DNA from: a virus | Taxonomy: Duplodnaviria > Heunggongvirae > Uroviricota > Caudoviricetes | Reading direction: 5' to 3' (one strand) | Virus record (IMG/VR): IMGVR_UViG_3300009175_000009 | Span: 48,524-112,523 of that record | Length of the DNA stretch: 64,000 nt | In this document: positions 14,348-62,148 of the stretch, in pieces | Numbering within the stretch: position 1 is the stretch's first letter | Layout of the letters: every line of letters starts with the position of its first letter | Notes under the pieces: model-generated | What the model was told of the DNA's origin: nothing | What the model saw: the letters and a program-made list of their open reading frames with translations, nothing else | The model's database searches: none | Program-made: the position numbers and the translations under genes

Positions 14348-14375
14348 GGCGAATTTCACCATTAGGAGGAAGAAG

Positions 14376-14948: not shown

Positions 14949-14951
14949 GAG

Positions 14952-15206
14952 GTGACGGCCATGTGGATCGTAACCGGAATTGCGGTGGCTGTAGGATACG
15001 TGGTGGGCTTCGTCGTCCGCGGCGTGCTGGAGTCATCACCGGAGATTTACGATAGCACGCGTCCCGATTCTCATATCGTGTTGGGCAAAACCACGGGCGA
15101 GGCGATGGAGCAGGCGAAGGCCATGTTTCCCTTCGCCCATTCTATTAGCATCACATCAGTTCAGGGCCGACCCGACCTGTGGTTAATAAAGCCGAGGTAC
15201 GAATGA
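14952..15206 (+). CDS. small membrane protein
   Basis: N-terminal TM helix WIVTGIAVAVGYVVGFVV. Confidence 0.4.
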   Translation: MTAMWIVTGIAVAVGYVVGFVVRGVLESSPEIYDSTRPDSHIVLGKTTGEAMEQAKAMFPFAHSISITSVQGRPDLWLIKPRYE

Positions 15207-15207
15207 T

Positions 15208-15420
15208 ATGGACGACGACCCGTTGAACTGCCAGGCCGAGGACGACGAACGGCGTTACCAGAATGATCCGAAGATTCATGAGGCGGCGATGCACATGATT
15301 CAGCTTGTACAGCAAGGTATTCTGTCGCCCGAAGATCTGGACTGCGCATCGCGTGTGGCCCGACGTATCATCGACCGTCGCATGAGATTAAACCACAGAG
15401 GTGAACCGTGGACTCGCTGA
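15208..15420 (+). CDS. hypothetical protein
   Basis: ORF. Confidence 0.4.
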   Translation: MDDDPLNCQAEDDERRYQNDPKIHEAAMHMIQLVQQGILSPEDLDCASRVARRIIDRRMRLNHRGEPWTR

Positions 15421-15579
15421 GAACCATGTGGGCATTTATCCGGGCCGTTAACGGCCTGAAGCTCAGCGAGCAACAATACGACAGGCTGTGGGGTCTCGTT
15501 CACCATATCCCAGGTCAGCCCGAACGCCGTCCCTGGTGGTTCCTACGCCCATTCATCAGGAATACCAAGGGATGAGACT

Positions 15580-16140
15580 ATGGCTCAAGGCTGCCGCTGT
15601 CTGCCGGGATGTAGAACCCGGAGTAACTACGTTTGCACGCGGCGGTTCGTGGCTACATCGACGACCGGCGACGAGGTGGCCAGTAAGTATTCCGAGGTGA
15701 AGTGCCTTGCCTGCGGCGGCAAATGGCGAACCGACGCAGTCTACGTCGAGAAGCTGCGAAACTACCGCGAGCGCAAATACCGCAGGATGACCGATGATCA
15801 AATACTACAACTGATCGAGGAAGGTCATCTCAAGGTCAATCCGATAACCGGCGTGGTTCGTAAGCACCGCAAGGTTTGTCACGAGTGGACGAAGCAGTGG
15901 GTCATCCTCAAGCAGGATTTAGACCGTAATGGTTACCCCAGCGTCCGCATCTACTGGAACGGTCACCGCAAGGGTGCTATGGTTCACAGATTAGTTTACA
16001 TGGCCGTTCGCCGAAAACTAATACCGGATGGTTACGATGTAGATCATCGAGATAAGAATAGGGCGAACTGTTCTTATAGGAATCTTAGGCTGCGAACCAT
16101 AGCCGCGAACCGTGGTAGGGTGGACGATGTCCCATTTTGA
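15580..16140 (+). CDS. HNH homing endonuclease
   Basis: HNH motif GYDVDHRDKNRANCSYRNLRL; N-terminal Cys cluster. Confidence 0.8.
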   Translation: MAQGCRCLPGCRTRSNYVCTRRFVATSTTGDEVASKYSEVKCLACGGKWRTDAVYVEKLRNYRERKYRRMTDDQILQLIEEGHLKVNPITGVVRKHRKVCHEWTKQWVILKQDLDRNGYPSVRIYWNGHRKGAMVHRLVYMAVRRKLIPDGYDVDHRDKNRANCSYRNLRLRTIAANRGRVDDVPF

Positions 16141-16144
16141 ACGT

Positions 16145-16618
16145 CTATTCAAGCTGTCGTGTATAGCCCTTGATGATGTTACGAATCGTTGTGGGGTTGA
16201 CGTTAAATCGTATTCCGAGTCGGTAGTACCCAAATTCACCAGTCGCGTAAAGGAGACGAGCTTCAATAACCTGGGGTGTAGTCATCTTAGCGTTATAGTG
16301 GGTGGCTCCGTGCATGTGCCGTCTTTTGGAAACACAGTCGTCTTCGTTATCTTGCTGTGTTCCGAGGAACAGGTGTGTAGGCTCGACGCACGGTGGGTTA
16401 TCACAGTGGTGACAGACATACATACCATCCGGTATTGGGCCGTAAGCGAGTTCATAAGCGACGCGGTGGGCGTACAGTGGCTTCGAGTTCGTGCCACCGG
16501 ATCCTATCATTCCATAGCCACTTCTGGTTCCGCCCATCCAGATCAAACATCCTCCGATTCTTCGGCGTTTGGGCACAGTGTGGAATCTAACATCAAGTGG
16601 TATGGCGTGGCGGGACAT
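16145..16618 (-). CDS. HNH endonuclease (HNH_3 type)
   Basis: CLIWMGG…YVCHHCDNPPCVEPTHLFLGTQQDN; GGAGATAA RBS on minus strand. Confidence 0.8.
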   Translation of the reverse strand: MSRHAIPLDVRFHTVPKRRRIGGCLIWMGGTRSGYGMIGSGGTNSKPLYAHRVAYELAYGPIPDGMYVCHHCDNPPCVEPTHLFLGTQQDNEDDCVSKRRHMHGATHYNAKMTTPQVIEARLLYATGEFGYYRLGIRFNVNPTTIRNIIKGYTRQLE

Positions 16619-16640
16619 AGTTATCTCCTTTGCTTTATTG

Positions 16641-16657
16641 TAGCAAAGCTATTGCTA
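16641..16657. promoter_or_regulatory. palindrome TAGCAAagctaTTGCTA in divergent intergenic region
   Basis: perfect 6-bp arms between divergently oriented genes. Confidence 0.3.
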
Positions 16658-16689
16658 ATACGCAAGAGTTGTTACGGAAAGACGATATC

Positions 16690-17388
16690 ATGAGGCTGAA
16701 TCGACACCAACTCCCGAAGCCGAGATCAGTTGAACGTCAACGTATGATGTTTGATACGCAAGAGATGACGCACGGTATGTGTCGCGTGATGGTGGGCGAT
16801 TTCATGGAGGAAGCAACCGCATGCCTCACCAGCAGCGTGCGACTCCGGACGGACTGCCGCTGCGAGATTTGTCCAGACATCCAGTATTCCCGCCGGCTGT
16901 TCTTCGAGAGCAAGTCGGTCGGCAACACTGACCAGGCGATCATCTATCAGAGCCGCCTGCGCAAGGACGCCGACTTCTGCCTCCGCGGCTACCAGTTATG
17001 CTACTGGTTCTGGCATCACCACTGCCAGGTCTCGAAGGCTGAGAGTAAGACCGAGCTATATCATGAAATTGCCAGGCTAATGCAAGACGTGATTGTGGTT
17101 CCGCTGCGAATGATCTGGAAGGCTTACGGACATCGCGGGCCGAAGCTGCTGAACAACGCACTGTCCCGCAACGGCAAGACCATCGGATGGGGCAGTTTTG
17201 GATATGGTTATGGGTGGAATATCCCACTCCAACAATGGCGTGCGATGGGTGGTACGCGAGTGATCGTACCAAAGCTGAAGGTCTATGATGTTGAGTTTAC
17301 GAATCTTAGGATACAACTGCTTCCAGACGTGCCGAGCGACGTGGTGATGTCGGTCATTCTAAGCGGCGGGTGTAGCCTTTGGCGTTGA
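16690..17388 (+). CDS. hypothetical protein
   Basis: ATG 16690; track start was TTG 16630. Confidence 0.45.
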   Translation: MRLNRHQLPKPRSVERQRMMFDTQEMTHGMCRVMVGDFMEEATACLTSSVRLRTDCRCEICPDIQYSRRLFFESKSVGNTDQAIIYQSRLRKDADFCLRGYQLCYWFWHHHCQVSKAESKTELYHEIARLMQDVIVVPLRMIWKAYGHRGPKLLNNALSRNGKTIGWGSFGYGYGWNIPLQQWRAMGGTRVIVPKLKVYDVEFTNLRIQLLPDVPSDVVMSVILSGGCSLWR

Positions 17389-17838
17389 ATGTTTAGTCTG
17401 TTTGTTCCGAAGAATGATCTTATCCTTGATAGTTTTCAGAGCATGGCAGTTTGGGCACATGAGTTGGTAGAGTTCGGGGTTTTTATAGGCCCTGACCGTG
17501 TTATCACCAGTTCTATGACGTCCGCCGCCGATAGCAACAATATGATCTGCTTGTAATATTTCAGGATGTTTGTTGTACCCACATTTGCAGCAACATCCGC
17601 CGAGCATTTGTAGTACAGCAACCCGTACCTGACGTCGCCACTCGTTTTTCCTTTTTGTGCAGCACGTTTTACATCTATACGAACGGTTGCGTAGTCCCGA
17701 AAATTCGGTGGTCGGTTGAGGAACGCCGCAGAGGTTACACGTGATATCCATAGCAGACACTATACCACGTATCTGCAACGCGTACAACGCCACCGTGTCT
17801 GGACTGGTTGTGTATGACGTACCGTTCCCCGACTTCAA
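17359..17838 (-). CDS. HNH endonuclease
   Basis: Cys4 pairs plus LQADHIVAIGGG…DNTVRAYKNPELYQLMCPNCHALK. Confidence 0.75.
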   Translation of the reverse strand: MKSGNGTSYTTSPDTVALYALQIRGIVSAMDITCNLCGVPQPTTEFSGLRNRSYRCKTCCTKRKNEWRRQVRVAVLQMLGGCCCKCGYNKHPEILQADHIVAIGGGRHRTGDNTVRAYKNPELYQLMCPNCHALKTIKDKIILRNKQTKHSTPKATPAA

Positions 17839-18059
17839 GGTGCGTCTGGCCCGCGAAGTGCCGGGTGATTTAGCAACAACCCTGTGGATGCGATGATGAA
17901 ATGGTTTAGTTTAAGTTGGTGGCTATACCTGTTCGACGGCTGCACGGGTTGGACGAATTTCTGGTGCCGCGTGCGAAATCATCCAGGCGGCGTGGTGTGG
18001 TATAACGTGAACGCCCTGGAGCCTGACATGCGCTGTAATAACTGTGGAGAAGACTTAGG

Positions 18060-18599
18060 ATGATTACCTTACCGAAACCCGGCGATACGGTTCACGTGAT
18101 CGTGGACGGTGAATACATCATGCCCTTCTACGTGTGGGGCGTATCGCAGCAGACCTATGTCGGTGCCGGCAACGAGACGCCGCACGTGCCCGCCGACCGG
18201 CAGGTCGCCTTGTGCCGTAACGAGCGCATCGGCTACAAGCTGATCGAGGTGCCGAAGCTGTCTCTGGAGACCGTAGCAACCAGGAACAGCAAACTGCCGA
18301 AGAAACGGCGGTGCGAGATGTGCAAACGACAGCGGAAGCGGTTAGGAACACATCACATCGATGGCGACAAAGAGAACAACGATCCGTCTAACCGAATGAC
18401 GCTATGCCCGCGATGTCATACTAAGTGGCACTGGCAGCACGGGAAACGAGGAAAGCGGAAAACTAGTGTAGTATGTTTTTGTGGTGATCAGTCCTTTGAA
18501 TTAGGAATGTGTCGGAAGCACTACCAGCGGTTCAAGCGGCACGGTGACCCGATGCTGGTGAAGATACGAAACGGTGGTTTAGTGCGAGCAGATTCGTAA
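18060..18599 (+). CDS. HNH endonuclease
   Basis: GTHHIDGDKENNDPSNRMTLCPRCHTKWH; RBS GGAGAAG. Confidence 0.7.
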   Translation: MITLPKPGDTVHVIVDGEYIMPFYVWGVSQQTYVGAGNETPHVPADRQVALCRNERIGYKLIEVPKLSLETVATRNSKLPKKRRCEMCKRQRKRLGTHHIDGDKENNDPSNRMTLCPRCHTKWHWQHGKRGKRKTSVVCFCGDQSFELGMCRKHYQRFKRHGDPMLVKIRNGGLVRADS

Positions 18600-18610
18600 G
18601 GAGGTCGAAG

Positions 18611-18928
18611 GTGAGAAGTAAGAACGATAGCGTGGTGAAGGCCCTGCTGGATGAGATGGGTTACCATGACCCGGTACGCTGCTGTTCGACCTGTGTTCAT
18701 TACAGGGAGAGCGACTGTAGCGGCAACCACAACGCCGAGGCCGAGCACTGCGAACTGAACCCAGCCCTGCATCTCCCTATCGATGGTGCGGGCTGGTGCC
18801 GGCATCACGTGGCCAAGACTGATGGCATTCGTACCTTCGCCAACGTAGGCAAGGCACAGGAGGCGATCAACGCCATGCGTGATCGTGAAGTTCCGAGCAA
18901 CCGAACCCCAAGGGATGAGATAGGATGA
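18611..18928 (+). CDS. hypothetical Cys-rich protein
   Basis: GTG start, AAGGAGG RBS; CCSTCVHY…C motif. Confidence 0.45.
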   Translation: MRSKNDSVVKALLDEMGYHDPVRCCSTCVHYRESDCSGNHNAEAEHCELNPALHLPIDGAGWCRHHVAKTDGIRTFANVGKAQEAINAMRDREVPSNRTPRDEIG

Positions 18929-19176
18929 TACCAACAGCCGAAGAGAATCCTAACGGACTTCACCAGCGGTATAAGGTCACCAAGGCCGATGGTACGACGT
19001 GCGACCCGAACGCCGTGTACTTCGTACTGCGTCTGGACAGTGGTGGCAGCATAGGCCACATCGCCTCGTGCCGCGAGGCTGCTGTGGCCTATGCTGCCGC
19101 AAGCCAGCACTACCCAGACCTGAAGGACGTCGGTATCGAGCTTCTACGGCTGGTGCATAAACTGGAGACCGCGTGA
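18925..19176 (+). CDS. hypothetical protein
   Basis: ORF, ATGA overlap. Confidence 0.45.
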   Translation: MIPTAEENPNGLHQRYKVTKADGTTCDPNAVYFVLRLDSGGSIGHIASCREAAVAYAAASQHYPDLKDVGIELLRLVHKLETA

Positions 19177-19790
19177 CCGAACGCCGCCGCATTAAAACTA
19201 CCGACTGGCGTGAGGTGATCACTCCCGAACGCAGACTGATCATGGGTATCGATCCCGGCATGAACGGTGGCTTGGCTGTCACCGAGACCGGACCCAACGC
19301 GATCATGTTGGTCAAGCGGATGCCCGAAGGGAACGACGAACTGTGGGCTTGGCTGCGGCAGCATATCGCGGATCCAAGCAACGTCAGCGTCTACATCGAG
19401 GCCGTGCATGCCTATGCGATGGGCGTGGCTGGGGCATTCAAGTTTGGCGTAGGTTACGGGCGACTTCTGGCGTTCATGACAGCTCTGGATATCATCCCGG
19501 TTAAGGTGCAGCCCGCCACTTGGCAGCGGGCCATGAACATCCCGACGACCCGCAAGCCAGTGCCCGTGGACTTCCGCAAGCAGGACGGCAGCACACGGAC
19601 GACCAAGGCGGTCAAAGCACTGCTCCAGGCTGAACACAAAGAGGATATCCGCAAGCGGGCTCAGGAACTGATGCCCGATCTGGACGTGTGGCAGAAGACG
19701 AAGAAGGAGCAAATGGCGGTATGCGACGCCCTGCTGATCACATACTATGGCGTGGTGACGAATGGCGGAATCAATTCAGCCGCGATGTGA
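19173..19790 (+). CDS. ruvC: RuvC-family Holliday junction resolvase
   Basis: IMGIDPGMNGGLAV (RuvC motif ILGIDPG) and C-terminal DALLITYYG (DAADALAIA); 20-aa N-terminal extension MTERRRIKTT carries the Arg tag. Confidence 0.65.
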   Translation: MTERRRIKTTDWREVITPERRLIMGIDPGMNGGLAVTETGPNAIMLVKRMPEGNDELWAWLRQHIADPSNVSVYIEAVHAYAMGVAGAFKFGVGYGRLLAFMTALDIIPVKVQPATWQRAMNIPTTRKPVPVDFRKQDGSTRTTKAVKALLQAEHKEDIRKRAQELMPDLDVWQKTKKEQMAVCDALLITYYGVVTNGGINSAAM

Positions 19791-19799
19791 ACGGTGCGG

Positions 19800-19807
19800 G
19801 TGTCTGT
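19800..19807 (+). promoter_or_regulatory. GTGTCTGT + TAGTAC motif (variant) followed by hairpin CGGGTGgacagCACCCG
   Basis: 130 nt upstream of sbcD. Confidence 0.3.
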
Positions 19808-19937
19808 TAGTACGGGTGGACAGCACCCGATACAACAAGTATCGTGAATGTATCCGCCACCTGAACACGCCCGAACTATGCGAAGGAACTGACGGCTACA
19901 TCACAAGCCCGTTCCGCTACGGAGTTAAGGAACCATC

Positions 19938-21008
19938 ATGAACTTACTGATAGCCAGCGACCTGCACGAGACCGATAACCTGCGAGACGCCTATCGATTG
20001 AGAATCTTTGAGTGGCTGGCGGGTGAGGCGACGCGGCGGCACGTGAACTATATCATAATCCTTGGGGATTTGACGGAATCCAAGGATCGACACTCTTCGG
20101 CCCTGGCGAACGCTATTGCCGATGGGCTGAAACTCCTCGACGACGCCGCTCCGACTATCGTTCTGATGGGCAACCACGATTACGTGAACCCCGACGTGCC
20201 CTACTTCCGTTGGCTGCGGCATACGGGCGTGGAGTTCTTTCTGGAGCCTACCAAGCGCACCCTCGGCGAGTCCAAGTGCCTGTTCCTGCCTCACACGCGG
20301 GCTGTGCGGCAGTACGCCGAAGGCTACAGGATGTCCGACTTCGACTACATATTCGCCCACCAGACATTCCACGGGGCCAGTATCGGCGGCGGGAAGCGTT
20401 TAGATGGCCTGCCGACTTCGACGTTCTCGGGTACGCGGGCGAGGGTATACTGCGGGGACGTTCATGTTCCGCAGCGGCTGGCGAACATCGAGTATGTCGG
20501 GGCACCGTACCACGTTGACTTCGGCGATGAATACATACCGCGGGTGATCTTCGACAGTGGTCGGGACTACGAGGATATCAACCCGCCGTTCCCGGCCAAG
20601 CGGAAGCTGGTCATCGATGGCACCGACCGGCTTACCGATATGCGGGTGAACCCCGGCGACATGATCAAGATCGAGGTGCGGCTGAAGCGGGCCGAGTTTG
20701 ACACCTGGAACGAGTGCCGCCGGCGGGTGCAGGAGTTTGCCGAACGCCAAAGGGCCGTGCTGTGCGGGTGCAGGCTCGTGGAACGCGATGTTCACCACAT
20801 GAGCCCGATGGACTTGGCCGCCCGGCGTCTGCCGCCCGGTGACCTGTTCAATCACTACTGCGCCAGCAACGCCGACCAGATCAGCGACGACCTGAAGGCA
20901 GCGGGCAAGGCGTGCTTGGCCGGCCCGCAGTTTCCACGGGCCAACCCGGAGGAAACCGTAGGCCGGCAATTGACGCGGCGACGTCTAGAATCATCTGTGT
21001 CTGAATGA
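19938..21008 (+). CDS. sbcD: SbcD/Mre11-family nuclease (calcineurin-like phosphoesterase)
   Basis: phosphoesterase motifs ASDLHETD, ILGDLTE, GNHDY. Confidence 0.8.
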   Translation: MNLLIASDLHETDNLRDAYRLRIFEWLAGEATRRHVNYIIILGDLTESKDRHSSALANAIADGLKLLDDAAPTIVLMGNHDYVNPDVPYFRWLRHTGVEFFLEPTKRTLGESKCLFLPHTRAVRQYAEGYRMSDFDYIFAHQTFHGASIGGGKRLDGLPTSTFSGTRARVYCGDVHVPQRLANIEYVGAPYHVDFGDEYIPRVIFDSGRDYEDINPPFPAKRKLVIDGTDRLTDMRVNPGDMIKIEVRLKRAEFDTWNECRRRVQEFAERQRAVLCGCRLVERDVHHMSPMDLAARRLPPGDLFNHYCASNADQISDDLKAAGKACLAGPQFPRANPEETVGRQLTRRRLESSVSE

Positions 21009-25674: not shown

Positions 25675-27534
25675 ATGATGCATATACAGGAAGTCACCCT
25701 GAAGGGATTCAAGTCGTTCGCCGAGGAAACACGCTGGGTTCTTCCTGAACGTCCCGGATTATACATGATTGGGGGTGACAACACCGTCGCCCCCCAGCTA
25801 CATTCCAACGGTGCGGGCAAGTCTACCCTCGTCGAGTCCATCCCGTGGTGTTTCTATGGCAAGACGTCACGCGGCCTGCGTGGCGGGGAAGTGGCATCGT
25901 GGAACGGGCCGCGATCATCTGCGGTCGAGGTGAAGTACCTGAAGGGCAACCAGCAGCATATCATGCGGCGGTCTACGCAGCCCGGAAGCATCACCCTCGA
26001 CGGCCAGGAAATCGATCAGGACGCAGCGAACCAAGCCATCGGTCTGAACTTCGATTGCTTCAGCTTCGCAGCATTGGTTGGGCAGTTCGCCCGCCACTTC
26101 GTTGACCTGCTACCCGCCGAGAAACTGGCCCTGTTCAGTTTCGTTCTTGGCCTGGACTATTGGCAGGAGTGTGCTGCCCGAGCCAGGGACGCCGCTAACG
26201 CCGCAGCCATCAAGGCGGCGGAGGCCAGCACCAACCAAGCCCAGGTGAAGGGCCGTTACGAGGAGGTGGCCGACCGATTGGCGAGCCTCGACGCCATTAT
26301 CACCCGCAGCCGCCGTCAGCTTGAGGAAGACCGTACACGCCTGGAGGCCGAAGCGACCCAATACGAGGCCGACATAGCCTCTATGCGGCGGGACGTGGCC
26401 TGGATGCGGCGAAAGGTACACATAGCCCAGCGGGCCGTAGACGAGGCCACAGCGGCGAGACGTGAGGCCCAGATACAGGTGGAAGACCTTGTGGCGGCAC
26501 AGGCCGGGGCGTCGGCCAAGGTAACCGCCCAGAAAACCGAGATCATACGCCTGAGCGGCGAGGTAGAACGCCTGAAGCGGGCATTCCCCCGCTGCGTGGA
26601 GTGCGGGCAGGTGGTGTCGCGAGATCATTTCGACACCGAGCTTGCAACGCGGGCGAACAAGGTGGCCGCGGCCAAGACCAAACGGCAGGAACTGGAGACC
26701 GTTGAAACTGAGGCCCGCCGATCCCTCACCGAAATCCGCCAGACGGTGGCGGGGCATGACCGCACGGTCAGTACCCTCCAGCGGTCCCGGCAGGAGATGG
26801 AGACCCAGGTACGCCGCACCGATTCCGCCCGCGAGCAATCCGAGGCCGATCTGCGTCATGTGCGGGCCGATATCGCGAGGCTGGAGGCGACTGCTAGTGC
26901 CAGCGGTGAACGCACCCTGGAATATGAGGAAACTCTGGAGAACATGCGAGCCCTCGGCGAAAGCATGCGGGACTGCCTGTTCGACCTGCGGGTGGCGAAG
27001 CGGAATGAGCGGTTCATGGAGTTCTGGGCCACCCGCGGCTTCAAGAACCTGCGGCTGAGCATCATGGAGGACGCTCTCCGTCAGCTTGAAACGCACGTGA
27101 ACAGCGACGTGGCGACCCTCGGCCTGGACGGATGGAATGTGGAGTTCGTCGTCGAACGCAAAACCAAGGCCGGCACTTTATCCCACGGCATGCAGACCAT
27201 GATCGCACCTCCGGGTTCGGAGATTGCGTCGAAGTGGGAATCATACTGCGGCGGCGAGGTGCAGCGTCTGCGGATAGCGACTACGGTTGGCATGATGAAG
27301 CTGGTCAGCGACTACGCAGGCGTGATGTGCGACTGCGAGATATGGGACGAGCCGACAGCACACCTGAACGTGCAGGGTGTTGCCGACTTGCTGGACTTTC
27401 TACGCACGCGAGCCCGCGTGGAAAACAAACGAATCTTTATCGTCGATCACCGCAGCCTGGACAGCGGGTTGTTTGATGGTGTACTTACCGTGACCCGCGA
27501 CGAAAGCGGATCCCACCTTGGACAATGGATGTAA
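25675..27534 (+). CDS. sbcC: SbcC/Rad50-family ATPase
   Basis: Walker A GAGKST, coiled coil with CxxC zinc hook (CVECGQ), ABC signature GGEVQRLRIA, Walker B IWDEP, FIVDH. Confidence 0.85.
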   Translation: MMHIQEVTLKGFKSFAEETRWVLPERPGLYMIGGDNTVAPQLHSNGAGKSTLVESIPWCFYGKTSRGLRGGEVASWNGPRSSAVEVKYLKGNQQHIMRRSTQPGSITLDGQEIDQDAANQAIGLNFDCFSFAALVGQFARHFVDLLPAEKLALFSFVLGLDYWQECAARARDAANAAAIKAAEASTNQAQVKGRYEEVADRLASLDAIITRSRRQLEEDRTRLEAEATQYEADIASMRRDVAWMRRKVHIAQRAVDEATAARREAQIQVEDLVAAQAGASAKVTAQKTEIIRLSGEVERLKRAFPRCVECGQVVSRDHFDTELATRANKVAAAKTKRQELETVETEARRSLTEIRQTVAGHDRTVSTLQRSRQEMETQVRRTDSAREQSEADLRHVRADIARLEATASASGERTLEYEETLENMRALGESMRDCLFDLRVAKRNERFMEFWATRGFKNLRLSIMEDALRQLETHVNSDVATLGLDGWNVEFVVERKTKAGTLSHGMQTMIAPPGSEIASKWESYCGGEVQRLRIATTVGMMKLVSDYAGVMCDCEIWDEPTAHLNVQGVADLLDFLRTRARVENKRIFIVDHRSLDSGLFDGVLTVTRDESGSHLGQWM

Positions 27535-41912: not shown

Positions 41913-43340
41913 ATGTTTGCAAAAGTGTTTCTGATAGGATTCATGTTCGTGGCTGCATTGGTGGCTCACAGCTACTGGCACTACGCTGTCGTTCCGGAGG
42001 TGAACGACCAAATGGCTTACAACCAGCTTGATCACAGTCGCTCCCGGCATGAGCAGCAGAACATGCGATTCTGGCAAGTCGCCAAGCAGTACCCAGGCAC
42101 GATCATCTGGACTTCGTTCTCCCTGCTGACCTTGCTGACCTTCATGCCCGAACTGAAGCGCGCCACGAAGGCGGGCAAAACCTTTGCGACCAGTATGTCA
42201 CCAGCGTTGTTGCTGCTATTGCTTGTCGGTGGGTGTCAGTCGCCCTACGATACTCCGGTCTTCGTCGATGTCGGTAATTCCGAGACGGCATTCATGGTGA
42301 AGAAGGAGGACAACAGCAAGCAAACGGCGACGAAGACCACGCAGATGTTCATTCAGCAGACTGCCGAGGGCAAACCCTGGGTGCAGTCGAAGCGCATCCT
42401 TATTCCGTACCGCTGGCAGGACATGGGTCATGGTTGGAACAACGGCAAGTTTATCCCCGACGCTCAGGTTTTCATTGTAGATCGCGTTCCATGTACGCGA
42501 GAGTGGACCGCAGCCCCGCACACAGGAACGTCGTTCAGGGACCAGGCCATTGACGTCGAGTCCAGTGATTCGGTGAACTTCTCCTGCGGCATCTCCATCG
42601 TTGCCCGTATTCTGACTGAGGAAGACGCGGTTAAGTTCTTCTTCAACTATCCGGCGAACAAGGATAGGGTCATCAAGGCGGGCGGCGGATACAAGGATGA
42701 CTACGTCGTTAAGACCGTAGGGCTTGAAGACGTCATGGATACCGAGGTGCGAGCCGTTCTCCAGCGGGTTTTCTCCGACGAGGCGGCCAAGTACACGATG
42801 GATGAAGGTCGCAATAGGAAGACCGAGTTCCTGAAGGCGATGCGAGACGAGGCTCAGAAGTACTTCGTCGAGCGAGGAATTACCATCACAAGCATTGGTA
42901 TGAAGGGTGGTTTGACCTACGCAAATCCTAACATCCAGACATCCATTGACAAGGTCTTCCAGCAGCAGCAGGACAAGAACGTCGCCAAGGCCGAACAGGA
43001 AGCCGCCACGGAGCGTAAGAAGGCTTTGCAGGCCGTGGGCGAGGGCGAGGCAGCCAAGGTGCTGGCCATCAAGCAGGGCGAAGCCAAGGGCATCCAGGCT
43101 GTCGCCGACGCCAAGGCGTATGAGCTACAGAAACTTCAGGAGAACCCGCAGGCGTACCTGATGCTGAAGCAGCTTGAAATCCAGAGCCGCATGCTGGAGA
43201 CCTGGGATGGCCGCATGCCGGTGTACCTAATGAACGGCAGCAGCGGTGCAGGGCCAACCATGCTATTGTCGATGCCCACAGCGGACGTGCCGCCCGCGAA
43301 GGCCAAGGCTGCGGTCAAGACCGCCGAGGCCGTGAAGTAA
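41913..43340 (+). CDS. SPFH/band-7 (flotillin/HflKC-like) membrane protein
   Basis: N-terminal TM, SPFH core, C-terminal EA-rich coiled coil KAEQEAATERKKALQAVGEGEAAKVLAIKQGEAKGIQAVADAKAYELQ. Confidence 0.7.
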   Translation: MFAKVFLIGFMFVAALVAHSYWHYAVVPEVNDQMAYNQLDHSRSRHEQQNMRFWQVAKQYPGTIIWTSFSLLTLLTFMPELKRATKAGKTFATSMSPALLLLLLVGGCQSPYDTPVFVDVGNSETAFMVKKEDNSKQTATKTTQMFIQQTAEGKPWVQSKRILIPYRWQDMGHGWNNGKFIPDAQVFIVDRVPCTREWTAAPHTGTSFRDQAIDVESSDSVNFSCGISIVARILTEEDAVKFFFNYPANKDRVIKAGGGYKDDYVVKTVGLEDVMDTEVRAVLQRVFSDEAAKYTMDEGRNRKTEFLKAMRDEAQKYFVERGITITSIGMKGGLTYANPNIQTSIDKVFQQQQDKNVAKAEQEAATERKKALQAVGEGEAAKVLAIKQGEAKGIQAVADAKAYELQKLQENPQAYLMLKQLEIQSRMLETWDGRMPVYLMNGSSGAGPTMLLSMPTADVPPAKAKAAVKTAEAVK

Positions 43341-43372: not shown

Positions 43373-43400
43373 GGGGAGTAGTATCTCACGTTCTACTCCC
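43373..43400 (+). terminator. hairpin GGGAGTAG-n12-CTACTCCC downstream of SPFH gene
   Basis: 8-bp perfect stem; weak T-run after it. Confidence 0.3.
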
Positions 43401-43426
43401 TGCCCTCATTTAGCATGTGTCTGGTA

Positions 43427-43434
43427 CAGCATAA
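43427..43434 (+). promoter_or_regulatory. GTGTCTGG + TACAGCATAAGGAGAA motif
   Basis: 12 nt before ATG 43447. Confidence 0.45.
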
Positions 43435-43446
43435 GGAGAACAAACC

Positions 43447-44160
43447 ATGAGCGATAGTAGCGTAGGACCGGCCCACGACCTTTCCAAGATACTGAAGGAG
43501 GTGCGGGACGTTCTGATACCCGAGCCTGACGACAGCATCGTCGACATCGTGGACGCCGCCAAAGCGGTGATGTCTCGTTTGAAGAACGCCGAACGCCTGA
43601 AAGATCATCACAGCTTCGAGTCCAACCTGCGTGGCATGGAACTCGACAAGGCGAACGAGCAGTTGGCCGCGGCCAAGCACTGTAGCGTCGAGGCCATGTA
43701 CCGGGCGAAGGCGATCATGGAGCATCACCTCAACCCGAAGGACGTCCCGCCCGGCACGGGCGTGAAGGAACTGGCCGAGATGCTGGTGGCGAAGAACATC
43801 GCGTGCTGCAACATCGTCGTCAAGGCTACCGGCGTTAAGGGCGAAGGTTACCCGGATTTGCGGGATATCATCCATGCCCTGGTGTGGGGCTGCGACACAG
43901 ACAAGCCCGAAGCCTTGCAACTGGTGAAGCTCATCGGCCTGCACGAGAAAACCATCACCGACCTGAAGAAGAAGGTGGCTGAACTGGAAGAGGTGGCCGA
44001 GGGTAGCCGCAAGAAGATCACGAAGTGGGCCAACGCCTGGCTGGAGGAGCTTCTGGACCGCTGCGATGCCGACGATGAGTTCTTCGCCGAGGTGCAGGGT
44101 GGCCTCCAGCATGTCTACACCAAGCTCATGAGCAAACGGAGAATGACAACGATGCCGTAA
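43447..44160 (+). CDS. hypothetical protein
   Basis: GTGTCTGG…CATAAGGAGAA directly upstream. Confidence 0.5.
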   Translation: MSDSSVGPAHDLSKILKEVRDVLIPEPDDSIVDIVDAAKAVMSRLKNAERLKDHHSFESNLRGMELDKANEQLAAAKHCSVEAMYRAKAIMEHHLNPKDVPPGTGVKELAEMLVAKNIACCNIVVKATGVKGEGYPDLRDIIHALVWGCDTDKPEALQLVKLIGLHEKTITDLKKKVAELEEVAEGSRKKITKWANAWLEELLDRCDADDEFFAEVQGGLQHVYTKLMSKRRMTTMP

Positions 44161-44213
44161 GCCTTGCACGGCTTGCGGATGACTGTTAACCTGAACGTAG
44201 GAGGTTAACAAAC

Positions 44214-44450
44214 ATGAGCACGCTATCGATCATACTAGCGAGCATCTGTTGCACGGCGGTCGTTCTGTCCGTGGGATACGATGCTTTGGCGTTTTACTTT
44301 GGGTGGTCAACGATTAGTTGGGCACTCTATCAATGGGATAAATCTTGGGCACAATTGCCTCGGTGGATCGCTGCTGCCATTTGGATGCACGTGTGCTACG
44401 GCGAAGCATCATATACCGCGGTTAGCCGCTATTTCGGACACATGCCATGA
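44214..44450 (+). CDS. small membrane protein
   Basis: two hydrophobic helices. Confidence 0.4.
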   Translation: MSTLSIILASICCTAVVLSVGYDALAFYFGWSTISWALYQWDKSWAQLPRWIAAAIWMHVCYGEASYTAVSRYFGHMP

Positions 44451-44578
44451 ACAGCCCAGCAGAAGTCGCAGCCGAGCTTGTAGCCATCCTCAACGATGAG
44501 GTGAAGGGTATGGACGACCTTGGTCGGCGTATTGTGGCCAATAGGCTCGCCGAGGTCATCCAGCCCTTCCTGATGTAA
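44447..44578 (+). CDS. truncated paralog (43 aa) of the N-terminus of the 45373 gene
   Basis: MNSPAEVAAELVAILNDEVKGMDDLGRRIVANRLAEVIQPFL vs MSPGEVASELAALVISEVSDMNDLGRRIVANRLGELISPWL. Confidence 0.4.
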   Translation: MNSPAEVAAELVAILNDEVKGMDDLGRRIVANRLAEVIQPFLM

Positions 44579-44830
44579 ACTCTTCGCAGGACTGGCACGA
44601 CGGCTACGTTCAGGGCCAGCTTGACTACGCCGAGGCGTTCCTGCGGGCGACCGCGGCGATGCGGGAGAAGGCGGCGAAAGCGAAGGTGAAGCCGTGAGTT
44701 GCTATCGGCTGTGGTTTAATGTACCATGAGTCTAGTCGAGCATCGCCAATGCCCAAATCATGTCCGCCACGCCCTGTCTGCGTTTGGCGATGCTCCAGGG
44801 CCTCTGGCGGACTGCATAAGGAGCATCGCC

Positions 44831-45376
44831 ATGCTAGAACGACGACGAATTCAAACAAGTCCTGAAGAAATTAGGAAGGCTAGAAAGAGGTACACAAATC
44901 GCCAGTGTTACCTACGGAATCGTGAATCTATAAATATGCGTAGTGCAAAAAGATGGGCAGAACTTTGGAAGAATGATCCAGACAAGGCAAGGGCGATAAT
45001 TGGCAAGAGTCAACGCAAGCATCGAGATCGTCGTCACGTAGATGTTTCCATAGCGTTAGAGTGTATGATGCGAAACGCACGTGCTCGTAGTGCCAGACGT
45101 AACCTGGATTGCAACATATCGCTAGAATACCTGCGTCAGGTTTATGATTTACAGGGCGGTGTTTGTGCTATAACGGCTATGCCGTTTGAGCAAACTACTG
45201 ACTACGGAAAGATGTCGTTAGATCGTATTGATCCATCGTGTGGTTACGTTCAGGGTAACATTAGAATTGTTTGGTTACTAGTGAATAACGCTATGGGTGT
45301 CTGGGGTGAGGGGCCTTTACTTCGAGTTGCAGAGGCGATTGTGGAACGGAATTTAGTAAGGAATCAACCTAAATGA
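44831..45376 (+). CDS. putative freestanding (homing) endonuclease-like protein; N-terminal MLERRRIQT tag
   Basis: AAGGAG RBS; C-terminal SLDRIDPSCGYVQGNIRIVW resembles phage HNH/AP2-type endonuclease DNA-binding modules; lies between truncated and intact copies of one gene. Confidence 0.4.
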   Translation: MLERRRIQTSPEEIRKARKRYTNRQCYLRNRESINMRSAKRWAELWKNDPDKARAIIGKSQRKHRDRRHVDVSIALECMMRNARARSARRNLDCNISLEYLRQVYDLQGGVCAITAMPFEQTTDYGKMSLDRIDPSCGYVQGNIRIVWLLVNNAMGVWGEGPLLRVAEAIVERNLVRNQPK

Positions 45377-45738
45377 GTCCAGGTGAAGTTGCATCCGAGT
45401 TGGCAGCCTTGGTCATTAGCGAAGTTAGTGATATGAATGATCTCGGTCGTCGTATTGTTGCTAATCGTTTAGGCGAACTGATAAGTCCCTGGCTACCAGC
45501 ACCTGTTCGTCCGGAACAGGGAACTGCGGCGACCGTACCCATGAACGATGTCGAGGCCAAAGCCTATGGCCAGACGGCGACCATGAGGTTTGGGAAGTAC
45601 GAGGGTAAGCGTATCGATGCTGTTCCACTGGACTACCTAATATGGCTGACCGATGAGTCCCGCCGCCTGTGGCGTGAGATGCACAGGTACTTGAACAGTC
45701 CCCGCATCAAACTGGAGCGTGATCAGAAGGGGCTATGA
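45373..45738 (+). CDS. hypothetical protein (intact copy of duplicated gene)
   Basis: see 44447 paralog. Confidence 0.5.
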   Translation: MSPGEVASELAALVISEVSDMNDLGRRIVANRLGELISPWLPAPVRPEQGTAATVPMNDVEAKAYGQTATMRFGKYEGKRIDAVPLDYLIWLTDESRRLWREMHRYLNSPRIKLERDQKGL

Positions 45739-46007
45739 TGAGTGACCTGCGGCCTACCTGCAAAGCGTGCCGGTGTAGATTCGATCCATCAAATCGTATG
45801 GATAAGCTATCGCGAGCCGGCATCACGCCGCACTGCCACGAGATGATGTACTGCCGTGAGTGTGCCGACGAACTGTTCCGCGACACGATCAGCAGCCGAC
45901 CGGCCCAGCTATTCTCAGCCGGCCCAGGCTGTCCGATGGAACATGGCGGGAGCGACGATCCAAGCCCGTGGGAAGAAAACAACGTGCGACTGATGGAGGA
46001 CGGGTGA
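45735..46007 (+). CDS. Cys-rich zinc-finger-like protein
   Basis: CKACRC…HCHEMMYCRECADE. Confidence 0.4.
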   Translation: MMSDLRPTCKACRCRFDPSNRMDKLSRAGITPHCHEMMYCRECADELFRDTISSRPAQLFSAGPGCPMEHGGSDDPSPWEENNVRLMEDG

Positions 46008-46222
46008 TGCAAGTTGGACCGAAGCAGTGCGACGATGGGCCGTATTGCTGGGGCTGCGTTCATAACCTGGACAGCCACGGCGGGTTCTCCTGTCATCATC
46101 CAGATCGTGAATACGAGAGGCTGCCCTGGGATAATCATACGCCGCAGCGGTGTCCAGTATTGAAAGCACCATGCACGACATCGACCAAGCTACTGCCGAG
46201 ATCATCTTCCACGGGCTCATAA
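46007..46222 (+). CDS. small Cys/His-rich protein
   Basis: CDDGPYCWGCVHN…CHHPD. Confidence 0.3.
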   Translation: MQVGPKQCDDGPYCWGCVHNLDSHGGFSCHHPDREYERLPWDNHTPQRCPVLKAPCTTSTKLLPRSSSTGS

Positions 46223-46545
46223 ATAAGTCTGGGCCGCCGGTGGTCATGGTTCGGGACAAGTTCGGCCAGTACACGAGGTCCGAGACCGGCGAGGCTCCCG
46301 GCCATTTGCCGTGGGGCGAGGAAGACGCCGGTTTGCCCGCCTGGGACAAGCCCCTGGCCGATGTATCGGCCTTAACTACCCGAACGCCAGCCCAGGCCCC
46401 GTCACGACCCGCTGTGACGCCGCCTGTGGCCGCACGTGAGCCCGTCGCCCGCAGGTCGATAGAACGGCTGGCCAGTGACTTTGACCGCCTGTGGGGCCAA
46501 ACAGCGGCCCCTGCCACCCCAACGCGAAGGAGGATCCAAACATGA
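46171..46545 (+). CDS. hypothetical Pro/Ala-rich protein ending …PTRRRIQT*
   Basis: ORF; start uncertain, overlaps the 46007 ORF. Confidence 0.35.
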   Translation: MHDIDQATAEIIFHGLINKSGPPVVMVRDKFGQYTRSETGEAPGHLPWGEEDAGLPAWDKPLADVSALTTRTPAQAPSRPAVTPPVAAREPVARRSIERLASDFDRLWGQTAAPATPTRRRIQT

Positions 46546-46787
46546 AACGACTTCTAGCTCTAGCCCTGCTGGTTTTATGTATCGGCTGCGGCGAAACCAC
46601 GGTGGCCCCGACCAGTGACACCCTTCCCACGGGAGCGACGAACGTCCGCGAGGTGGGCAACGGCTGGTCTACCTTCGACTGGCAGGGGCATCATATTTTG
46701 TACCACAAGTTCAACTATCAGAACGGTGGCCAGATTTCCCGCAGCGAGTCGTTCTGCGTGATCAGCATGAAGGCGGAGAAGCCATGA
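46542..46787 (+). CDS. lipoprotein
   Basis: MKRLLALALLVLCIGC lipobox; AAGGAGG RBS embedded in the upstream RRRIQT codons. Confidence 0.5.
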   Translation: MKRLLALALLVLCIGCGETTVAPTSDTLPTGATNVREVGNGWSTFDWQGHHILYHKFNYQNGGQISRSESFCVISMKAEKP

Positions 46788-60909: not shown

Positions 60910-61469
60910 ACCACGAACTGAATTCTTTCCTGTCCCTGCGGCCTGGTCGCGAGGCCGACCTCAAACTGGCCCAGGGCGACGCTCCCGTAGATGCCGCCGC
61001 GATTCCCGAGTCGCCCGTAGTCGACCTCAAACGCGATCCCCGAAATGATCTGTTCACGGGCGAAGACGGCAAGGAGCATTGGGGCTTTCACATGATGGTG
61101 GACTGCTCCGGCTGCAACAAGAACATCGACGACGGCAAGCAGATCAAGAAGTTCATCAAGGATCTGGTCGCGGCCATCAAGATGACCGCCGTGGGCGAGC
61201 CGTTCCTGTATAACTTCGGCACGGATTCCGATGGTGGCTGGAGTGCGTTACAGCTTATCACAACCAGTAACATCTCCATGCACGGCGACAACCGCATCGG
61301 CAGCATGTACTTCGATATCTTCTCGTGCAAGCCGTATGACCAGTCGGTCGTCCTGAAGATGATCGACGAACGATTCAAGCCCAAGTTCAGGAAAGTTAAC
61401 TTCCTGTATCGGGATGCACCTCACGATGACCTGACAGGAAAGACAAATGAACTCACAGTGGGACGATGA
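60906..61469 (+). CDS. S-adenosylmethionine decarboxylase proenzyme (pyruvoyl-dependent, SpeH/SpeD-like)
   Basis: GFHMMVDCSGC…LITTSNISMHG…DIFSCKP parallels SpeH HLIVDLYGC…ESHISIHTWPE…DVFTCG. Confidence 0.65.
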   Translation: MNHELNSFLSLRPGREADLKLAQGDAPVDAAAIPESPVVDLKRDPRNDLFTGEDGKEHWGFHMMVDCSGCNKNIDDGKQIKKFIKDLVAAIKMTAVGEPFLYNFGTDSDGGWSALQLITTSNISMHGDNRIGSMYFDIFSCKPYDQSVVLKMIDERFKPKFRKVNFLYRDAPHDDLTGKTNELTVGR

Positions 61470-62148
61470 CGGATTATCCCTGACTATCTACAGTGAAGAC
61501 CGCGTCGGGCCGGTCAGGTACAAGTTCTCTGGAATTCTCGAAGAGCGCAAGTCGCCTTTTCAGATCATTAGGGTCATGGATCATGAGGCTCATGGCAAGA
61601 CCCTCATCGTGGGCGACGATGTTATGTCGGCCAACAGTGATACTGAGTATGATCGGGCTATGCTCGACCTGCTGCCCGACATGGATCACATGCGGGTCTT
61701 GATCATGGGCGGAGGCGACGGCAGCCTGGCAGCCGAGCTATGCGACCTGCCCAACGTGGCACGAGTCACATGCTGTGAGATTGATAGCGAGGTTCTCGAC
61801 GTTTGCCGGCGGCACTTTCCCATAAGCCTTAACGGCGAGGCCCACAAGCTGCACGTGAACGTAGGTGACGCGTTCCGATACTTGTACGAGAACGCCGACA
61901 AGTACGACGTTGTTTTTGATGATATGACTGTCGAGCCGACTCATGCATCCGAGGATTACAGGCTCAATCTAGCGCGGGCCTTCCGCGGCAAGTGGGTCAT
62001 ATCACAAACCGGCGAGCACAAGTCGAAGTCTGAAACCAGAATCATCAGGCTTCTCCAGGACGAGGCTACGGCGGAGTTTCACAGGTTCTGCCGCTACTGC
62101 CCATTGTTCGAGACCTTCTGGACGTTCACGAAGTACAGGCTGGCGTAA
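61447..62148 (+). CDS. speE: spermidine synthase / aminopropyltransferase
   Basis: VLIMGGGDGSLAAEL (GGGDG signature), VTCCEIDSEVLDVCRRHFP, DVVFDDMT. Confidence 0.7.
   Translation: MNSQWDDDGLSLTIYSEDRVGPVRYKFSGILEERKSPFQIIRVMDHEAHGKTLIVGDDVMSANSDTEYDRAMLDLLPDMDHMRVLIMGGGDGSLAAELCDLPNVARVTCCEIDSEVLDVCRRHFPISLNGEAHKLHVNVGDAFRYLYENADKYDVVFDDMTVEPTHASEDYRLNLARAFRGKWVISQTGEHKSKSETRIIRLLQDEATAEFHRFCRYCPLFETFWTFTKYRLA

Follow-up and report, generated by a model that had tools for sequence, protein, structure and literature searches.

A PacI-type nuclease-like gene between a truncated and a chimeric copy of its neighbour in an uncultured large phage: a probable relic of one-sided homing

The window, by which we mean the whole 64,000-nucleotide stretch of viral DNA analysed, is part of a large one-strand phage genome, and the same allele occurs on contigs of up to 192.5 kb. 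In it, a free-standing nuclease-like gene lies between two unequal copies of the start of a 121-aa gene. The features of this locus are:

44214..44450, + strand: 78-aa gene, the conserved left neighbour (from the ORF list; 78-aa homologues stand at the equivalent place in the L001-L016 lineages)
44447..44578, + strand: orphan 5' piece of the resident 121-aa gene (homologous to it over codons 1 to ~40 by BLASTP)
44557..44568, no strand: left illegitimate junction, the 12-nt TCATCCAGCCCT (from alignments of 44520-44640 to the 123-aa and 106-aa genes of L009)
44563..44697, + strand: start-less 3' remnant of a 106-aa gene homologue, ~44 codons plus TGA (from translation and tblastn)
44732..44840, + strand: structured leader of the 181-aa gene (inverted and direct 12-mers; RNA folds)
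44831..45376, + strand: 181-aa PacI-type His-Me finger (HNH superfamily) nuclease-like gene, free-standing
45143..45310, + strand: predicted catalytic beta-beta-alpha-metal core, residues 105-160 (from the family alignment, the HMM alignment to PacI 3ldy and a structure model)
45373..45495, + strand: foreign low-GC codons 1-41 of the 121-aa gene (GC3 0.34 against 0.64 for the remainder)
45496..45738, + strand: resident 3' two-thirds of the 121-aa gene, a linker and a DUF3820/QSregVF_b domain (78.5% DNA identity to L002)

A preliminary description made from the sequence had proposed that the 43-aa ORF at 44447-44578 duplicates the start of the 121-aa gene at about 65% identity. This is confirmed: in BLASTP, 26 of 40 residues (65%; 32/40 positives, gap-free, E 5e-17) are identical to the first 41 residues of the 121-aa product. 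The two copies also share 65% DNA identity across 123 nt, and tblastx recovers the pair at E 7e-13; the comparison of upstream and downstream copies that had been suggested as a check thus gave similarity far above chance. The ATG of the ORF overlaps the TGA of the 78-aa gene (ATGA) and its GC3 of 0.69 resembles the resident genome. Homology to the 121-aa gene stops near codon 40 (~44566), and the final residues F-L-M, with the stop codon TAA at 44576-44578, are an out-of-frame reading of DNA derived from a 106-aa gene. The ORF is a dead stub, the relic of the original gene start. That it could instead be a true paralogue, small and retained for its function as an N-terminal domain on its own, strikes us as very improbable. 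Its start is still coupled to the upstream gene, its end falls close to a domain boundary of the 121-aa protein and it was called as a gene in seven fetched assemblies; however, it is absent from all 18 fetched related loci that lack the nuclease gene, it owes its last codons and stop to out-of-frame DNA, a start-less fragment of another gene comes after it, and all known copies are identical, hence without any sign of selection.

The two copies are separated by an insert of ~0.93 kb (~44567-45495) that contains, in this order, the tail of the 106-aa gene, the structured leader, the 181-aa gene and foreign codons 1-41 of the 121-aa gene. Over the 50 codons of the open frame that ends at 44697, there is no ATG, GTG or TTG. 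This frame had been noticed earlier as an orphan, C-terminal-looking frame; it is indeed start-less, but it comes from the 106-aa gene and not from the duplicated gene. The remnant matches the C-terminus of the 106-aa product of the L009 lineage (72% amino acid identity, tblastn E 3e-12; blastn 77% over 44556-44653), a lineage in which the 106-aa gene lies directly upstream of a 123-aa homologue of the 121-aa gene. At the left junction, the 12-nt microhomology reflects sequence (TCATC...CCCT) that the 121-type and 106-type genes have in common, and the reading frame is lost across the fusion; at the right junction it is kept, inside the homologous 121-aa gene. The insert is compositionally mixed, with GC3 values of 0.89 in the 106-aa gene remnant, 0.36 in the 181-aa gene and 0.34 in the downstream N-terminal copy (resident parts, 0.64-0.69); accounting for it takes a mosaic donor or else two or more successive events. 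The 121-aa gene begins ATGAGTCC, and two strings in this region look like it, ATGAGTC (44726) and GTGAGT (44695); they might be older relics, though they are very short.

The downstream copy had been taken as intact. It is complete and in frame, its ATG overlapping the TGA of the 181-aa gene in another ATGA coupling, but by its composition and its identity to relatives it is a chimera, in which foreign codons 1-41 are fused in frame to the resident remainder. Within it, GC3 changes at codon ~51 (max-chi-square; permutation p 3e-4), and breakpoint permutation tests gave p values of 2e-4 to 5e-4. DNA identity to relatives is 0.56-0.59 in the tract of codons 1-41 versus 0.72-0.78 downstream, and the blastn match to L002 begins at 45497. 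The foreign tract possibly extends to ~45525 (codon ~51); its right boundary can be placed only within ~45470-45525 because the linker is variable. Codons 1-41, possibly to 51, share the low GC3 of the nuclease gene, the pattern of a co-conversion tract in a flanking target gene. The resident part carries a partial match to PF12843 (DUF3820/QSregVF_b; residues 69-94, 23.9 bits, gathering cut-off 22), which is also recorded for the P0003 relatives. In annotation, stubs of the 43-aa type would be better flagged as relics and the adjoining gene as a chimera.

Excising ~44567-45495 restores an in-frame 121-aa gene of uniform composition, with the junction ...GAGGTCATCCAGCCC joined to ...CTGCCAGCACCTGTTCG (44447-44566 + 45496-45738). 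The reconstructed N-terminus is nearer to the N-termini of relatives than the present one: the upstream copy is 76% and 67% identical to them in amino acids, the downstream copy 60% and 59%. The point at which the upstream copy is truncated (codon ~40) coincides with the right end of the foreign tract (codons 41-51), as expected if both mark one break. As read from these comparisons, a single 121-aa gene, once made up of 44447-~44566 and ~45496-45738, has ~0.93 kb of foreign DNA lodged in it near codon 40-41.

Comparison with related loci agrees with this reading. As the preliminary description had anticipated for relatives, a single uninterrupted copy is found wherever the 181-aa gene is absent (18/18 fetched loci: L001-L016, L026 and L027), and two copies are found in all seven fetched loci that have the 181-aa gene and span both positions (the window, L017-L021 and L029). 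Among the fetched loci, two copies are confined to those with the 181-aa gene; the duplication is restricted to genomes that carry it. Its presence at a fixed site is patchy among otherwise collinear relatives: only the window lineage has it. ENA BUCK21-1 scaffolds, ERZ273 k141 contigs, a Logan contig and a contig of 192.5 kb all show one arrangement, with 100% identity wherever they were compared. Joins in chimeric assemblies may bring sudden changes in GC, although nothing specific points to a metagenome assembly chimera across strains, and we find such an artefact hardly conceivable: the arrangement recurs identically in independent contigs from several samples and pipelines, and reading frames and ATGA couplings run unbroken across the joins.

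The 181-aa product has a PacI-like nuclease fold in which the catalytic constellation is conserved. Five residues (C112, D131, Y139, R145 and N152) are invariant in an alignment of 40 family members, and D131, R132, Y139, N143, R145 and N152 are collinear with PacI D92, R93, Y100, N104, R106 and N113 in an HMM alignment to 3ldy. The structure model places strands at 128-132 and 144-148 and a helix at 149-155, preceded by a basic N-terminal region of 90 residues with four helices. In PacI, a tyrosine replaces the general-base histidine (PMC5714182; PMC4081073) and the side chains of an aspartate and an asparagine are ligands of the single catalytic metal (PMC4081073). Both features have counterparts here. 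The omega-loop tyrosine is Y139, aligned with PacI Y100; the position of the usual histidine is R132, nearly invariant, like R93 in PacI; and the invariant D131 and N152 align with PacI D92 and N113. On this alignment Y139 would act in place of the usual histidine, with Asp131 and Asn152 as the metal ligands. The module SLDRIDPSCGYVQGNIRIV, which had been proposed as a DNA-binding domain, is instead the catalytic beta-beta-alpha-metal core according to the family and PacI alignments.

The likeness to PacI (PDB 3ldy/3m7k) is distant: the alignment is gap-free (VDRSD..GY..N.RL...CN with LDRID..GY..N.RI...VN) and the two proteins share the tyrosine in place of the general-base histidine and the aspartate and asparagine metal ligands, but overall identity is only ~12%. 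PacI has two Cys4 zinc sites and the 181-aa protein has neither; C112 alone is conserved in the family, and PacI C63, C109 and C112 correspond to G, W and L. The four-helix basic region stands in place of the PacI N-terminus. PacI is a bacterial restriction enzyme, whereas the 181-aa gene is a free-standing, patchy phage gene with predicted activity; group 20 of the His-Me finger superfamily, the PacI-like group, is described as predominantly viral (PMC5714182). The PacI match required a profile: single-sequence phmmer against the PDB returned spurious antibody matches only, the protein has no Pfam match at E <= 1, and none of the 40 family members matches an HNH-type Pfam model (PF01844, PF13392, PF02945 and relatives) at E <= 0.01. 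The best PHROG is an 'endonuclease' family (1.4e-21); phrog_1400 'Srd anti-sigma factor' (8.6e-11) and phrog_4592 'decoy of host sigma70' (1.9e-5) also match.

These last two matches suggest a different role, that of a domesticated protein with the PacI-like fold but no catalysis, perhaps a regulator or host-takeover factor in the manner of Srd, in which case the gene would be a moron and the duplication a by-product. The N-terminal ~85 residues of T4 Srd (residues 14-99 of 248) are homologous to the 181-aa domain (hhalign probability 97.6%, SLERFD..GY..GN), and the loss of the PacI zinc sites also fits a regulator. Yet the 181-aa protein keeps all family-invariant residues, including the catalytic Asp, Tyr and Asn that match PacI, while Srd, which is annotated as a regulator and not as a mobile nuclease, has E at the position of D131 and is missing the equivalent of R145. 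The full-length Srd architecture is not found in the 181-aa protein: the additional ~150-residue C-terminal part specific to Srd is absent, and the phrog_1400 match covers profile positions 15-84 of 251. The best PHROG points to an endonuclease, and patchiness, foreign composition and an RBS-sequestering leader all resemble those of homing nuclease genes. We therefore regard a regulatory role as quite improbable, and retain a nuclease as the preferred assignment.

The start of the 181-aa gene matches its earlier description in two respects, a strong AAGGAG ribosome-binding site (44818-44823, 7 nt ahead of the ATG) and an arginine-rich N-terminus (the product begins MLERRR). Its leader forms a long imperfect hairpin, in which a perfect 12-bp stem pairs 44785-44796 with 44820-44831 and captures the Shine-Dalgarno GGAG and the A of the AUG. 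The leader RNA folds at -46.9 kcal/mol (z -3.7; 0/200 shuffles equally stable) and the local hairpin at -27.4 kcal/mol. This is not without precedent: RBS-sequestering hairpins are known from T4 I-TevI, segB and Aeh1 mobE (PMC2988022), where, as here, the RBS and AUG are held in the hairpin. A scan of 44100-45900 for sigma-70 promoters and terminators gave nothing above shuffle expectation.

The resemblance to the T4-like seg and mob genes of 'intronless homing' goes further. Like the 181-aa gene, these lie between conserved genes in some relatives only, a stretch of the neighbouring gene is co-transferred, and the cut site (a presumed one in our case) is at some distance from the insertion point, within the neighbouring gene (PMC2988022). 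The differences are that the T4 genes belong to the GIY-YIG or canonical HNH families and the 181-aa gene to the Tyr-type PacI-like family; that T4-like intronless homing is a clean replacement, unlike the duplication and out-of-frame junction in the window; and that homing, for which the T4-like genes have genetic or biochemical proof, is proposed here. Closer in catalytic family are the PacI-like HNH genes of lactococcal Skunavirus, which are likewise phage-encoded, free-standing, variably present and presumptive homing endonucleases (PMC12724721). They are rare (2/268 genes) and occupy one fixed site in the morphogenesis module; the part of that report drawn on here makes no mention of a flanking duplication.

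A clean double-crossover gene conversion would have left neither a second copy nor an out-of-frame junction in the 106-aa gene, and was rejected. A better model is the one-sided double-strand break repair of the T4 td intron, with homology on one side and microhomology on the other (PMC2988022). The window has a homology junction on the right, a microhomology junction on the left and a duplicated segment. T4 experiments have documented both one-sided homing with microhomology junctions and cleavage at sites distant from free-standing nuclease genes, and one-sided repair allows invasion with only one homologous flank (T4 td; PMC2988022). We thus consider it probable that the free-standing nuclease gene arrived by one-sided homing with an illegitimate junction on one side. 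During co-infection, the nuclease would have cut a nuclease-free allele inside the 121-aa gene, ~120 bp away from the nuclease gene's own position in the donor. The break end that carried the 3' part of the 121-aa gene would then have invaded the homologous donor gene, and leftward copying would have passed through donor codons 41 to 1 and then the nuclease gene with its leader, ending within the 106-aa gene upstream, the new strand being joined to the other break end at the 12-nt microhomology. Such one-sided repair would leave two copies of whatever lies between break and nuclease gene. Of these, the donor copy would restore an in-frame, ATGA-coupled 121-aa gene, altered at the presumed target site, and the resident copy would remain as a dead 43-codon stub. 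That the 181-aa protein made the cut, where the cut fell and that cleavage was the trigger are what we infer from this arrangement. The homing footprint of the preliminary description accordingly stands as a nuclease-like insertion with partial target duplication, given the relatives, the composition, the fold and a second locus described below, but not as clean gene conversion.

Neither partner of such an event was recovered. The un-invaded allele was not found in the collections searched, and the cluster members of the 121-aa family, like every contig with the window allele, have one and the same arrangement. No collection searched yielded a donor either, with the nuclease gene between a 106-aa and a 121-aa gene, so which way the transfer went and in how many steps are inferred. 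INPHARED phages gave nothing by blastn (distant) of 43400-46600 or by tblastn of the 121-aa protein. In IMG/VR, a single-protein scan found no relative and a profile scan one weak match only (L025, the DUF3820 core alone); a profile scan of JGI metagenomes likewise gave one weak match (L024). Word-indexed searches returned identical copies only with the nuclease, and no candidate for the donor arrangement with the 106-aa gene remnant. For P0156, a 65-aa cluster member on a 112-kb JGI contig that might represent a different allele, nothing is on record.

The region as a whole is a general mosaic hot spot. The interval between the 78-aa and 121-aa genes holds the 106-aa gene, a Zn-ribbon gene or the present insert in three lineages, and lineages also differ in the side of the 121-aa gene on which the Zn-ribbon gene stands. 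Illegitimate recombination between co-infecting phages (78-121 with 106-X-121), with the nuclease-like gene as a passenger, could hence be considered. Such nuclease-independent mosaicism would fit a region whose gene content differs among all three lineages and in which the window has its Zn-ribbon gene beyond the 121-aa gene; the junction is plain microhomology and cleavage by the 181-aa protein is only predicted. We nevertheless judge it unlikely, if the most serious of the competing explanations. The orphan truncation and the end of the foreign tract agree within ~10 codons, which is expected from one break and not from independent events, the low-GC tract covers exactly the nuclease gene and the adjoining gene end, and the same type of footprint recurs beside an unrelated HNH_3 gene in L026.

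In L026, the sequence of a 208-aa gene agrees with that of its L002 counterpart (~100% identity) until the last ~100 nt, which are low-GC and foreign; the HNH_3 gene comes next, and then an orphan copy of the resident C-terminus. By this order and composition, the locus reads as the mirror image of the footprint in the window. One-sided repair as in T4 td predicts exactly the duplication seen in both. The T4 td work used engineered laboratory substrates, with which one-sided homing has so far mainly been shown, whereas the window would hold a natural relic in an uncultured phage; and, in contrast to the T4 td case, the same outcome is seen with two nuclease families, unrelated to each other, within a single group of large uncultured phages. 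In a tblastx self-comparison, the other HNH genes of the window (13500-20500) showed no comparable flanking duplication.

If the one-sided homing account is correct, the locus would be a natural relic of a laboratory mechanism that can be followed at single-base level, from the break through the copied tract to the join at the microhomology. In itself it is a tidy but ordinary example of selfish elements reshuffling phage genomes. It also provides circumstantial evidence that zinc-less PacI-type nucleases, a family of thousands without a Pfam model, act as mobile elements, and the presumed target, near codon 40 of a DUF3820-type gene, is testable. The SLDRID-GY-GN family is very large, with 6604 cluster representatives at E <= 1e-3; many of its proteins have tandem domains, and they lack a Pfam model. 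It is tempting, if rather doubtful at this stage, to see in them a major unrecognised class of zinc-less Tyr-type (PacI-like) homing nucleases of phages and giant viruses that would habitually spread by one-sided repair, carrying surrogate ends of their target genes, with T4 Srd as a domesticated descendant. Were this true, SLDRID-GY-GN nucleases would exchange the ends of proteins among phages and give rise to orphan micro-ORFs.

The locus comprises the following features:

44447-44578, 43-aa ORF, a truncated upstream copy of the 121-aa gene (the stub)
frame ending at 44697, an orphan frame lacking a start codon
44831-45376 (+), 181-aa gene for a PacI-type nuclease-like protein
45373-45738, intact 121-aa gene, DUF3820-type

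The preliminary description of a nuclease-like gene lying between a truncated and an intact copy of one gene is correct in its main elements. The 43-aa ORF matches the 121-aa ORF without gaps (26/40 residues identical, E 5e-17; 65% DNA identity across the common stretch), the frame ending at 44697 has 50 open codons and zero start codons, and the gene at 44831 does carry a strong ribosome-binding site (AAGGAG, 7 nt 5' of the ATG), its TGA overlapping the ATG of the 121-aa gene. Single-copy relatives also exist: the N-terminal segment is present in at most one copy in fetched loci that lack the 181-aa gene, and in two copies in every locus that has this gene and spans both positions. The orphan frame is not part of the duplicated gene; it is the 3'-terminal part of a gene homologous to the 106-aa gene found in the related L009 lineage (tblastn E 3e-12; blastn 77%); it reads ...SSQDWHDGYVQGQLDYAEAFLRATAAMREKAAKAKVKP, and the L009 protein ends ...SQDWHDGYAQGQLDYAAAFRKATEDMHKAKP. 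Adjoining the stop of this remnant, GTGAGT (44695-44700) resembles the 121-aa gene start (ATGAGTCCAG; L009 AAGCCATGAGC), as does ATGAGTCTAG at 44726-44740; both are very short and could be vestiges of earlier insertions.

Composition and identity delimit the insert. GC3 stands at 0.69 for the upstream copy, at 0.89 for the 106 remnant and at 0.36 for the 181-aa gene; within the intact 121-aa gene, it is 0.34 for codons 1-41 and 0.64 for the remainder, with a break at about codon 51 (maximum-chi-square scan, permutation p 3e-4). Identity to relatives breaks at about nt 165 of the gene (p 2e-4 to 5e-4), and blastn similarity to L002, from the other related lineage, starts at 45497. Because the linker (codons 42-56) varies between lineages, the right-hand boundary can be placed only within ~45470-45525. 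On the left, 121-type sequence extends to ...GAGGTCATC, and from CCCTTCC on the sequence can be recognised as 106-type; since both parents share TCATC...CCCT, the junction lies within 44557-44568. The fusion is out of frame, so that the 43-aa ORF ends F-L-M-stop in 106-derived DNA. Deleting ~44567-45495 in silico yields an in-frame gene of uniform composition, whose N-terminus is 76% and 67% identical to relatives at the amino acid level, against 60% and 59% for the present gene. The stub is truncated at the same place in the gene as the end of the foreign tract, as expected from one break and not from independent events. The insert itself is compositionally mixed, and its origin therefore requires two or more steps, or else a mosaic donor.

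This anatomy fits one-sided homing, with putative cleavage by the nuclease. A nuclease-free allele would break near codon 40; the break end with the gene's 3' part would invade a homologous donor gene, and synthesis would run from donor codon 41 back to codon 1 and on through the nuclease gene, its leader and some of the upstream 106-aa gene before microhomology joins the new strand to the other break end. The resident N-terminal segment would thereby become the stub and the donor copy would be fused in frame. With engineered T4 substrates, homology on one side does suffice for homing, microhomology junctions arising on the other, and free-standing nucleases cut at sites distant from their own genes (PMC2988022). 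Searches of IMG/VR, of ENA and JGI metagenomes and of contigs with the window allele, as well as word-indexed searches, recovered neither the empty allele nor the donor. Free-standing homing nuclease genes, co-conversion, distal cleavage, RBS hairpins and one-sided repair are already established; the locus adds a natural relic in which one-sided homing can be read with unusual clarity, a recurrence of that outcome within one phage group (in L026, a relative without the 181-aa gene), and circumstantial evidence for the mobility of a large family without a Pfam model. PacI-like free-standing HNH genes of Skunavirus phages are termed presumptive homing nucleases in one account (PMC12724721).

In L026, ~510 nt of the 208-aa gene match the L002 counterpart at ~100% identity; over the last ~100 nt identity drops to 62-76% and GC3 goes from 0.77 down to 0.44. 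After the HNH_3 gene that follows, residues 9-41 of a 41-aa ORF repeat the C-terminus of the 208-aa protein as an orphan copy (GC3 0.85), 82% identical to the L002 C-terminus and only 64% to that of the adjoining upstream gene. L026:528-1776 is an independent mirror image of the window case, with a different nuclease family. The HNH genes concerned, including two further ones of the window, are:

L026:1161-1649, HNH_3 gene 3' of the 208-aa gene, GC3 0.40
15580-16140, free-standing HNH gene, Pfam HNH_3 1.8e-11
18060-18599, free-standing HNH gene, Pfam HNH 5e-5

The two window genes bracket a low-GC island (GC ~0.51, 16-18 kb), and no flanking duplication footprint was detected around them.

The 181-aa protein has no Pfam match at E <= 1; its best PHROGs match is phrog_3322 'endonuclease' (1.4e-21), followed by endonuclease VII, Srd and HNH families. 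Word-indexed search returned identical copies only; exhaustive HMMER search returned 6604 cluster representatives (E <= 1e-3), many of which carry a tandem pair of domains, and 533 deposited phage records match the protein, the majority from T4-like coliphages. Across 40 aligned family members, none matched by HNH-type Pfam models, C112, D131, Y139, R145 and N152 are invariant and R86, S129, R132, G138, N143, V147 and G159 nearly so. With the family profile, a match to the restriction endonuclease PacI emerges (3ldy, E 9e-4), D131, R132, Y139, N143, R145 and N152 aligning gap-free with PacI D92, R93, Y100, N104, R106 and N113; both PacI zinc sites are gone. PacI, as described in the His-Me finger classification and the Type II restriction enzyme review, has no catalytic histidine; an omega-loop tyrosine takes its place, Asp and Asn hold the metal, and the enzyme's His-Me finger group is mostly viral. 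The SLDRID...GY...GN...N module is the catalytic core because it aligns with PacI, whose Tyr, Asp and Asn roles come from these reviews. The C-terminal module had been taken for a DNA-binding domain, which this alignment with catalytic residues does not bear out; the basic helical N-terminal half is more likely the DNA-binding part. In T4 Srd, ~85 N-terminal residues are homologous to the same domain family (hhalign 97.6%; SLERFD..GY..GN; L028:3043-3786, the Srd locus) and constitute a divergent member, which suggests that Srd descended from such a PacI-like nuclease. Srd is annotated as a regulator ('anti-sigma factor'), and therefore not every family member need be a nuclease.

Expression of the nuclease gene may be restrained by its leader. 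The 109-nt stretch 44732-44840, which precedes and runs through the start codon, folds as a long hairpin (-46.9 kcal/mol, z -3.7; 0/200 shuffles equally stable). The Shine-Dalgarno GGAG and the first AUG base are both paired in a perfect 12-bp stem formed by 44785-44796 and 44820-44831. The 12-mer (GAGCATCGCCA core) occurs at 44738-44749 and again at 44820, and its complement lies at 44784; the copy at 44738-44749, the third, is able to pair with the same stem arm. Alternative predicted hairpins can form between the copies, and in one of them the RBS and AUG are buried. Similar RBS sequestration is described for T4 I-TevI, I-TevII, I-TevIII and segB, and for Aeh1 mobE (PMC2988022).

The window looks like a large phage genome, with long ORFs nearly all on the + strand and GC ~0.58. 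No DNA or protein match was found among 50,697 deposited phages (blastn of 43400-46600, tblastn of the 121-aa protein); a 192.5-kb metagenomic contig carries the same 121-aa allele, and ENA metagenomes yielded two related lineages, L001-L008 with L026-L027 (gene order 78-aa, 88-aa Zn-ribbon, 121-aa in the L002 lineage) and L009-L016 (78-aa, 106-aa, 123-aa). The neighbourhood of the locus is a hot spot of nuclease gene gain and loss, and the region itself is also a hot spot of mosaicism. Endonuclease_7 (PF02945) genes of relatives lie near the locus at differing places (L009:4762-5454, L007:3198-3758); that of L009 stands between the 242-aa and 78-aa genes, where the window has a short spacer only. 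The Zn-ribbon gene (~90 aa) lies 3' of the 121-aa gene in the window (45735-46007) and 5' of it in the L002 lineage (L002:5735-6001), and is missing from the L009 lineage; it appears to move or get lost independently of the nuclease cassette. Three other window genes met during the scan encode a 475-aa Band_7/SPFH-type protein (41913-43340; phrog_200 'lipoprotein'), a 619-aa SMC/AAA_23 (SbcC-like) protein (25675-27534) and a spermidine-synthase-like protein with a methyltransferase fold (61447-62148).
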